Source of the DNA: a virus
Lineage: Duplodnaviria; Heunggongvirae; Uroviricota; Caudoviricetes
Strand: one strand, 5' to 3'
IMG/VR virus record: IMGVR_UViG_2711768059_000007
DNA: 4,380 bases
Shown here: piece after piece, positions 1,201-4,245 of the stretch
Layout of the letters: each line of letters opens with the position of its first letter
Position numbering within the stretch: position 1 is the first letter of the stretch
Notes under the pieces: model-generated
Told to the model about the DNA's origin: nothing
Database searches by the model: none
Seen by the model: only the letters and a program-made list of their open reading frames with translations
Position numbers and translations under genes: made by a program

Positions 1201-4182
1201 TCAGCTGATACTGATACCTGCTGTGGATTTCTTCATCACCACAACCAGCAGATCGCTGATACTGGTTGTTGGTGTCCAGTCATTCGCTCCTGATGAAGAT
1301 ACGGTGAATGTCAGTGTCAGCGTCCCCTGTCCGGCAGGCATATCTATAACTGAGGAAAATACGCCCTGAACATCCGTCGTGGACTGATTAAAAATCTCCT
1401 GACCATTGCGGGTCACTCTTAACCGGCAGGTTGAATACCAGTATGACTGTTGGTTATTACTGTTGAAATTCTCATGCTTACCACCGCGGAATAACACTGG
1501 CGGTATCATGACCTGCCGGTCAAATTTCTGATCATCACTGATTCTTACCGTGATGGTGCCGCTGGCATAAGTGCTCGTGCGGGGGAAAGACTTGCTGACC
1601 GTTTTGACAATATCGCCTTCAATCTGGTTGGCTGACAGTTTCCCCTTAATCTGACAGTTCTCATTAATCGTGACGTTGTTGAGCGTCCCGGAGTTCGCAT
1701 TCACACTGCCACTGATATCCGCATTTTTAGCGGTCAGCTTTCCGTCCGGTGTCAGGGAAAATGCCGGTGGATTTCCACCGCTGGTAATGGTGGGGGCCGT
1801 CAGGCGCTTCAGGAACACGTCGTTCATGAATATCTGGTTGCCCTGCGCCACAAACATCGGCGTTTCATTCCCGTTTGCCGGGTCAATAAACGCGATACGA
1901 TTGGCGGCAACCAGAAACTGGCTCAGTTTGCCTTCCTCCGTGTCCTCCATGCTGAGGCCAATACCCGCGACATAATGTTTGCCGTCTTTGGTCTGCTCAA
2001 TTTTGACGCCCCACATGGCATTCCACTTATCGTTAGCATCCTTCCACTCTTTCGAAAACTGCTCCAGTTTGCTGGCGTTATCCTCCGTCAGGTCGACTTT
2101 TTCCAGCAGCTCCTTGCCGAGATGGGATTCGGTTATCTGGCCTTTGAAAAAATCCAGGTAACCTTCCGCATCATCGCTCGCCCGACCGACGGCCTCCACA
2201 AATGCCGATTTGCCAACGGTGTTCACACTGCGGATATAAAAGTAATAATCATGGCCCGGTTTGATATTGATACTGGCGGCTATCCAGTACAGCGCCGTAC
2301 CAAGATAGCGGGCTGTGGTTTCAACCTGCCTGATATCCGCAATCCGCTTTTCCGAGAACCAGAACTCAAACTGTACCGTCGGATCATAAACCGCAAGATG
2401 CGGCGTGGCGGTTATCTGAAAATAGCCCGGCGTCAGCTCAATCCGAGACGGCGCTGCCGGTGCGGCAATCCGGAACGATACCGATGCCGGATCGCCCTGC
2501 TGTCCCCACGCATTTACCGCCCGGACTGTCAGCCTGTAGTTCCCCAGCGCCAGTTGCGTGAAGCGGTATGTGGTTTCCGCCGTCCGGGCCGTGCTGACCA
2601 GCCGCTCACTGCCGTCATCCGCTGCCACGGTCAGGCGAAGCAGGAAACTCACGCCCTTCACCACCTTCGGCGTGTCCCAGCGGGCCAGTACCTGATACTC
2701 CCCGCTGTCTGCGGTGACTTCGGCAGTCAGGTGCTGCACCGCGGGCGGCGTGACACCATTCACCGTGCCGCTCTGGTCGCCGTCAAAGTGCGCCCCGTTA
2801 TCCACGATGGCTTCTTTTTCCGGTACATGCTGCACGGCAGTGATGGCATACGTGCCGTCATCGTTCTCACGGATACTCACACAGCGGAACAGGCGCTGGC
2901 GCAACGTCGGCAACTTCAGCCCCCATACGCTGTATCCGGCAACGCCGTCAGGAACACGGCTCACTTTTACCTTCACGCCGTCGGTGACGGACTGGACCTC
3001 CACGCTGACCGGATTGCCACTTCCGTCAACCAGGCTTATCAGCGTGGTACCGGAGGATGGCAGCGTGATTTCACGGTCGAGCGTCAGCGTCCGGGTCTGG
3101 CTGTTCACCGCCAGCACGCGCCCGCCGGTGCTGATACCGGCATAGTCATCATCGCAGATTTCAATGACATCGCCCGGCACATGGCGAAGCCCTTCTGCGC
3201 CCACGCTGAAATCCACGGTCTGCGTTTCCAGCAGTTCTGTTTTAATCAGCCACAGCCCGGCGCGATGTGCCTGCCCCCGGCTGGTACAGCCAAAGGCATC
3301 CATCTTCGTGACGTTACGACCGTAACGGGCAATGGCCTGCGTGTCCTCCACAAGCTCTGTCGCCGTCTCCCAGCCGTTATTCGGGTCAATCCAGTTCACC
3401 TCAACGGCATTATGGCGGTCCTTCAGGGCGCTGAAGCTGTAGCGGAACGGCGCGCCATCATCCGGCATCACCACATTACTGCGGTTATAGGTCCACACCT
3501 TATCTGATGGTCGGTCCTGCACGAACGTCAGCGTCTGCCCGTTCCATACCGGCATACAGCGCATCGCCGAGCAGAAATCACTGAGCACATCCCACGCCTT
3601 GCGCTGTGTGGTCAGCCAGGCATTACAGGTGATGCGCGGCTCCGTGCCGCCAAAGCCGTCCGGCACTGACTGGTCGCAGTACTGGCCGATGACATACAGC
3701 GCCCATTTATCCACATCCGCCGCACCAAGACGTTTCCCCATGCCGTAGCGCGGGTGGGTCAGCATATCCCACAGACACCAGGCCATGTTGTTGCTGTATG
3801 CCGGTTTAAACGTTCCGTCCCAGATACCGCTGTATTGCCGCGTCTGCGGGTTATAGTTCGACGGCACCTGCAGAATGCGCCCGCGCAGATGATAATTACG
3901 GCTCACCTGCTGGCTGCCGAACTGCTCCGAATCCACCTGCACGCCGACCAGTGCCGTGTTCGGGTAGCCCTGTTTCACATCGATGATTTCGGTGTATGAC
4001 GACCAGAGCGTTTTGTTCTGCAGCTGGTCTGTGGTGCTGTCCGGCGTCATCCTGCGCATCCGGATATTAAACGGGCGCGGCGGCAGGCTACCCACCACCA
4101 CCGAGGCCAGATACTGCGAGGTGGTTTTGCCCTTAATGGTGATGTCTTTTTCCGTCACCCAGCCACCGTTACGTTGGTGTCC
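1201..4182 (-). CDS. J: Tail tip / host specificity protein J (central fibre protein), 5'-truncated; the upstream end is bounded by adapter sequence, not by a real start codon
   Basis: The minus-strand ORF 1201..4266 from the track is collinear with lambda J, from my recollection, from ...[27 protein letters not shown]... through the central conserved region (…[25 protein letters not shown]…, …[24 protein letters not shown]…) to a C-terminus …[10 protein letters not shown]. Stop is TGA at 1203..1201. J-like sequence begins at about codon 31 of the track ORF (nt ~4176). The track start at 4266 is a TTG inside artefactual sequence. The roughly 110 N-terminal residues expected for a lambda-type J are absent. 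Confidence 0.9.
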
Positions 4183-4245
4183 CTTATACACATCTGACGC
4201 TGCCGACGATCTACACGGGGGAGATTTTGGTGGTCGTCGTGCGCA
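4183..4245. other. Illumina Nextera adapter read-through (ME + read-1 adapter reverse complement + index-like 8-mer + degraded P5 reverse complement); non-biological
   Basis: Plus-strand 4177-4209 gtgtcccttatacacatctgacgctgccgacga matches CTGTCTCTTATACACATCTGACGCTGCCGACGA at 31/33, with 4183-4209 exact (27 nt). Then comes 4210-4217 tctacacg (index-length spacer). Then 4218-4245 ggggagattttggtggtcgtcgtgcgca resembles GTGTAGATCTCGGTGGTCGCCGTATCATT (P5 reverse complement) with errors typical of a low-quality read tail. Confidence 0.85.

Follow-up and report, generated by a model that had tools for sequence, protein, structure and literature searches.

The last 204 bases (4177–4380) of the window, by which we mean the whole 4,380-nt stretch of DNA that was analysed, are a sequencing artefact and not biology, of a kind that is ordinary in assemblies. 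They almost certainly come from one Illumina read 2, the 3′ part of which had not been trimmed, in a Nextera (Tn5 tagmentation) library. The read would have been kept as a dead-end extension of the contig, and in it a minor signal from the Escherichia coli gene djlB would have been called after the end of the main template. The window is the entire contig CXYE01000066.1 (4,380 bp, assembly GCA_001269025.1) in reverse complement, as revealed by an exact-protein look-up with the chimeric open reading frame that spans the junction at 4176/4177. The following features were assigned, in window coordinates:

1–470, minus strand: 5′ part of an Stf-like prophage tail-fibre gene that runs off the contig end (Pfam phage_tail_N; contig coordinates 3911–4380)
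535–1134, minus strand: lom, encoding an Ail/Lom outer-membrane beta-barrel protein of 199 aa (open reading frame list, Pfam Ail_Lom, annotation of the closest genomes)
1201–4176, minus strand: lambda-type tail tip / host-specificity gene J, codons 142–1132 plus stop (homology to gpJ)
4177–4266, minus strand: false N-terminus of the called 1021-aa 'J', with a TTG start at 4266 and 30 artefact-encoded codons (chimeric open reading frame 1201–4266)
4177–4195, plus strand: Tn5 mosaic end as read-through, CTGTCTCTTATACACATCT, 17/19, directly adjoining the insert; miscalls 4177 G and 4182 C
4196–4209, plus strand: reverse complement of the Nextera read-1 (A14) sequencing-primer part (A14rc), GACGCTGCCGACGA, 14/14
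4210–4217, plus strand: i5 index slot of 8 nt, TCTACACG, between A14rc and P5rc
4218–4246, plus strand: degraded reverse complement of the P5 flow-cell sequence (P5rc), GTGTAGATCTCGGTGGTCGCCGTATCATT, 19/29 in the exact expected register
4247–4256, plus strand: A-run after the template end, AAAACAAAAA; the same run follows P5rc in other contaminated records
4257–4380, plus strand: noisy copy of the djlB gene on the E. coli chromosome, in antisense orientation to its codons ~70–111, 101/124 identical

Prophage content of the contig

The real content of the contig (1–4176) is a small piece of an E. coli prophage with partial stf, lom and J. Lambdoid prophages of E. coli align to it collinearly, with identities reaching 99.8%; the closest genome is NZ_CP035882 (99.6% identity across 1–4176). 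All three genes lie on the minus strand. The counterpart of 1–470 in NZ_CP035882 is annotated as 'prophage tail fiber N-terminal domain-containing protein' and is 99.6% collinear. J (1201–4176) is a lambda-type J, being collinear with annotated gpJ at 99.6–99.8% identity, and the called protein contains the Pfam families FNIII-A_GpJ, Phage-tail_3, Ig_J, Phage_Tail_Tip and Ig_GpJ_C. Over 3700–4176, identity is 99.8% to E. coli prophage gpJ in many genomes and 98.5% to J of phage lambda. The gene order J, lom, tail-fibre gene is the same as in the J–lom–stf region of lambda. Unlike lambda J, that of the contig is without its first 141 codons, but only because the contig stops there, and nothing suggests a biological truncation of J.

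The 18 differences from NZ_CP035882 are clustered, with four of them at 1114–1125 and five at 3505–3619. Clusters of this kind have the look of the mosaic exchange that is usual among lambdoid prophages, and they are unrelated to the artefact.

The junction at 4176/4177

Across thousands of genomes and phages, all alignments to J stop at 4176/4177. Past 4176, only 49 of 204 positions of the window are identical to the native continuation of J, which is the random level. Before this homology break, the stretch 3755–4176 has zero mismatches to the RM10466 prophage, and second-template noise, which was looked for in these last J bases by the same comparison, was not found; clean bases are expected there if other reads cover them. 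Because the window is the whole contig, the 204 non-native nucleotides form a contig end, and the adapter described below points outward.

A preceding sequence-only reading had placed adapter sequence inside the apparent 5′ end of J, had ascribed it to the extension of a contig end with an untrimmed short-insert read, and had called the assembly untrustworthy beyond about 4180. The last of these statements is borne out by the random identity past 4176. Read-through at a contig end agrees with the stop of J homology at 4176/4177, with the window being the whole contig, and with the occurrence of the same construct at contig ends across phyla. The placement of the adapter stands in part: it does lie within the start of the called open reading frame, but this is not the start of the gene. 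The native gpJ coding sequence occupies 2701–6099 of the NZ_CP035882 extract, in which window position 4176 corresponds to 5676 (locus L002), so that it runs on for 423 nt beyond the junction. The break is therefore located 141 codons inside the true J and not at its 5′ end.

Adapter modules downstream of the junction

The canonical 33-mer CTGTCTCTTATACACATCTGACGCTGCCGACGA, named as the Nextera trimming adapter in 84 papers, has a single match in the window, at 4177–4209 on the plus strand (31/33), with mismatches at 4177 and 4182. The longest exact run comprises 27 nt at 4183–4209. No match to the 33-mer occurred in 200 dinucleotide-preserving shuffles of the window. Both the exact run and the 31/33 match had been reported from the sequence alone and were reproduced by direct search. 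Their reading as a Nextera mosaic end joined to the reverse complement of the read-1 transposase adapter is confirmed by 17/19 and 14/14 identical positions, respectively, and by an adapter screen of the window. The 8-nt index-like spacer and the degraded P5 reverse complement that were said to follow are found at 4210–4217 and 4218–4246. Other Illumina adapters (Nextera read 2, TruSeq, P7) gave nothing above background in the whole window.

In a comparison with a list of i5 indices, the index TCTACACG is nearest to the reverse complement of N504, a weak match (6/8). An assignment of the i5 index to N504 was rejected as too weak, there being no exact match among the indices compared.

In the design of Nextera libraries, A14rc, i5 and P5rc are reached by read 2. 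Of the elements of a Nextera read-2 read-through, the following were observed in the present case: the mosaic end, A14rc, the index slot with P5rc, the terminal position in the contig and the independence of taxon. Adapters of short-insert reads are left untrimmed by Illumina software (PMC3163567).

The A-run after P5rc measures about 10 nt here and 8–22 nt elsewhere (L122, L048, KY883635.1 and KY883634.1), with poly-G in its place in two-colour data. A 10-T linker of the flow-cell oligo has been used on a home-made surface (PMC11123353). Such a fixed linker would explain the A-run only partly, as the length of the run varies.

The djlB-like tail

The remaining part of the tail (4257–4380) aligns to djlB with E = 2e-24, at an identity of at most 81.5% among 5,426 complete E. 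coli genomes; no djlB match above this value was found in complete E. coli genomes or plasmids. The djlB product is a J-domain protein, and the gene is unrelated to phage J. The identification of the content of 4246–4380 as a djlB copy is new beyond the sequence-only reading.

A genuine djlB gene would have a kept reading frame and differences that are rich in transitions and biased to third codon positions. None of this was found in the tail. In the DjlB frame it contains two in-frame stops in 41 codons, and its 23 differences from djlB are spread 9/7/7 over the codon positions. All of these are transversions (0/23 transitions), and 18/23 are A<->C or G<->T exchanges. The error spectrum is distinct from that of the real contig part, where 13/18 differences from the closest relative, NZ_CP035882, are transitions (Fisher p = 5e-7). 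An exact scan of 185,579 species-representative genomes gave no hit for a 48-mer from the tail. A real diverged homologue of djlB is ruled out by the in-frame stops, the transversion-only differences and the missing exact match in these genomes. The mismatch between tail and djlB is not evolutionary divergence. On four-colour Illumina instruments, one laser serves A and C and the other G and T, and A>C and G>T are characteristic miscalls (PMC2532726). The exchanges in the tail follow this dye-confusion pattern.

A probable second template beneath the adapter

The ungapped djlB alignment was extended to the left under the adapter, keeping the register in which the position in the djlB locus (L001) equals the window position minus 2756. 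Miscalls in the adapter and P5 number only 12, and ten of these carry the djlB base in this same ungapped register (binomial p = 5e-4). Twelve shifted registers gave 0–6 djlB-matching miscalls. In the mosaic end, the two miscalls, G at 4177 and C at 4182, are what djlB has in this register, and so are 8/10 of the miscalls in P5rc. The sole non-A base in the A-run, a C, is also the djlB base. Since the miscalls in the adapter carry djlB bases in register, one series of base calls reflects two superimposed templates.

This points to a mixed-signal cluster as the origin of the offending read. Leakage of signal between adjacent clusters has been documented for the GAII, HiSeq and MiSeq instruments (PMC5316982). 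A polyclonal cluster would yield the same pattern as cross-talk from a neighbour, and sequence cannot separate the two. The present tail resembles mixed-signal base calls (PMC5316982, PMC2532726) in that the second template is followed in the same cycle register, and it shares with colour cross-talk (PMC2532726) a preference for A and the confusion of A<->C and of G<->T. A mixed-signal read would usually be trimmed, or discarded by chastity or quality filtering, whereas here one survived into a deposited contig.

The contig probably preserves the individual base calls of a mixed-signal cluster, with djlB legible under the adapter and standing alone after the first template. If so, the junk that follows adapters in public assemblies might often be a decodable ghost of another locus, at risk of being taken for a diverged paralogue or a pseudogene.

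Proposed origin of the terminal 204 bases

We propose that the library fragment was short and that its insert ended at the J position corresponding to 4176. Having passed the insert, the read would have gone through the mosaic end, the A14 primer site, the i5 index and P5 before leaving the template, which would have produced the A-run. The same cluster probably carried a weaker signal from a djlB fragment, because it was polyclonal or by spatial cross-talk from a neighbour. As long as the main template lasted, this minor signal would have surfaced as occasional miscalls. Once the main template was over, the base caller would have tracked the minor signal and generated an error-rich djlB copy with A/C and G/T confusions. 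The assembler would then have kept the read as an unclipped tip, presumably because the contig ended in J, a gene with copies in different prophages of one genome (median 2 copies per genome, up to 14–17 places).

With this origin, the tail should be supported by a single read, and coverage should collapse beyond the junction. Reads of at least about 250 nt would have been needed, because the 204-nt tail and a k-mer overlap must be accommodated, and the instrument was presumably a four-colour one. A search for a publication or metadata on CXYE01 / GCA_001269025 that give platform and read length found none.

Alternative explanations

A chimeric join is the best of the alternatives, and we regard it as quite improbable. 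It would involve two or more separate reads or contigs: low-complexity A-rich k-mers would have connected a J contig that has adapter at its end either with a low-quality read of independent origin or with real DNA of a contaminant organism that has a diverged djlB homologue. The A-run could indeed supply shared k-mers, and internal adapter-mediated joins exist in public records (JAUCQE010000132.1, and NZ_CP071328.1 inside a 'complete' E. coli chromosome). Yet 10/12 miscalls at 4177–4245 are already djlB bases in the register of the tail, which is unexpected if the tail comes from a separate read; the in-register correlation speaks against two independent reads having been joined. The variant with a real homologue is further contradicted by the transversions, the stops and the genome scan described above.

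It is highly implausible that J carries a real transposon insertion, either of natural Tn5/IS50 or of an engineered EZ-Tn5 that has mosaic ends. In favour of it are the sharp junction in J and the fact that the 19-bp mosaic end works as a Tn5 end. An insertion would, however, bring a transposon body, a second end and a 9-bp target duplication. What comes after the mosaic end here is the synthetic A14 primer site (14/14), then an index slot and P5, with no transposon body, IS50 or marker, and the contig stops before any second end could occur. Contigs of Streptomyces, Flavobacteria and archaea, as well as unrelated phages, carry the same string at their ends. We take the mosaic end found here to be the engineered form (...ACACATCT) and not the IS50 outside end.

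Chance resemblance within genuine phage or bacterial sequence, which the sequence-only reading had called effectively impossible, has a negligible probability, as the expectation for an exact 27-mer is ~1e-12 in 4.4 kb, none of the 200 shuffles had a match, and the native continuation of J is known and differs from the window.

Consequences for the annotation

The artefact has left its mark on the called protein, in which the peptide SSAASDVYK is translated adapter. By exact-protein look-up, the 1021-aa chimeric 'J' is recorded from CXYE01000066.1 only, without an accession. We recommend that CXYE01000066.1 be clipped at 4176. The false N-terminus of 'J' should be disregarded, and the djlB-like tail indicates neither a J–djlB junction nor a diverged paralogue of djlB, nor does it tell where the prophage is integrated. 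The relevance of the case is restricted to data hygiene, and the biology of phage and host is unaffected.

The same construct in other records

The Nextera read-through sequence is widespread. In a scan of one genome per bacterial or archaeal species, the exact 27-mer was found in at least 120 contigs from unrelated phyla, the carriers among the matches listed including Streptomyces, Flavobacteriia, Collinsella, Planctomycetes and archaea. Also among the matches listed, 116/128 occurrences lie at most 50 nt from a contig end and point outward, and CTGTCT precedes the 27-mer in 125/128. Where the sequence goes on, there follow an 8-nt index (clean in other records), GTGTAGATCTCGGTGGTCGCCGTATCATT, an A- or G-run, and junk. 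The same construct was found in 77 GenBank phage records from unrelated hosts, mostly at record ends, and the 27-mer occurs at just four weak places in the 5,426 complete E. coli genomes. As the construct is present in species-representative genomes, RefSeq and 'complete' phage genomes, adapter screening is needed before contig ends are interpreted.

Order, spacing and sequence of the modules (CTGTCTCTTATACACATCT + GACGCTGCCGACGA + reverse complement of i5 + GTGTAGATCTCGGTGGTCGCCGTATCATT) are the same in the window as in Nextera/Tn5 read-2 read-through in other assemblies. The position at a contig end and the outward direction are likewise shared, with native homology stopping at the junction. 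The post-adapter tail is unusually long, with 171 nt as compared with at most 50 nt in 116/128 other cases among the matches listed. Unlike in usual read-through, the adapter contains 12 miscalls, and the post-template part represents a specific gene, djlB, whereas featureless A- or G-rich noise is found elsewhere. The case is textbook adapter contamination of a draft assembly, rendered slightly unusual by the long tail and the decodable second template.

The construct can also lie internally, as in the following two records. In NZ_CP071328.1, the RefSeq 'complete' chromosome of E. coli strain 4114, the same read-through is located at 3147805–3147866 (L130:401-480), just downstream of yibL. 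It consists of a mosaic end with errors, A14rc, the index slot ATTAGACG, a degraded P5rc and a short A-run, and its internal position points to a misjoin through the adapter or an artefact of polishing. In JAUCQE010000132.1 (L057), the adapter is found at 3888–3914, which is 466 nt from the contig end, and is followed by a truncated P5rc and GC-rich coding-like sequence. This is probably an internal chimeric join and not a terminal tip.

Some contigs carry the 27-mer at both ends (L051, L076, L077 and L082). RefSeq records with the 27-mer include NZ_JNWQ01000103.1 (Streptomyces novaecaesareae) and NZ_JODY01000030.1 (S. catenulae). The phage genomes KY883635.1, KY883634.1, MH538296.1, OY978796.1 and PP129558.1, several of which are labelled complete, end in adapter, index, P5rc and an A-run (or poly-G/N), and as much as about 150 nt of junk comes after it in these five genomes. 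An annotated coding sequence for a hypothetical protein (84..452) in Bacillus phage Maceta overlaps the adapter at nt 26–103.
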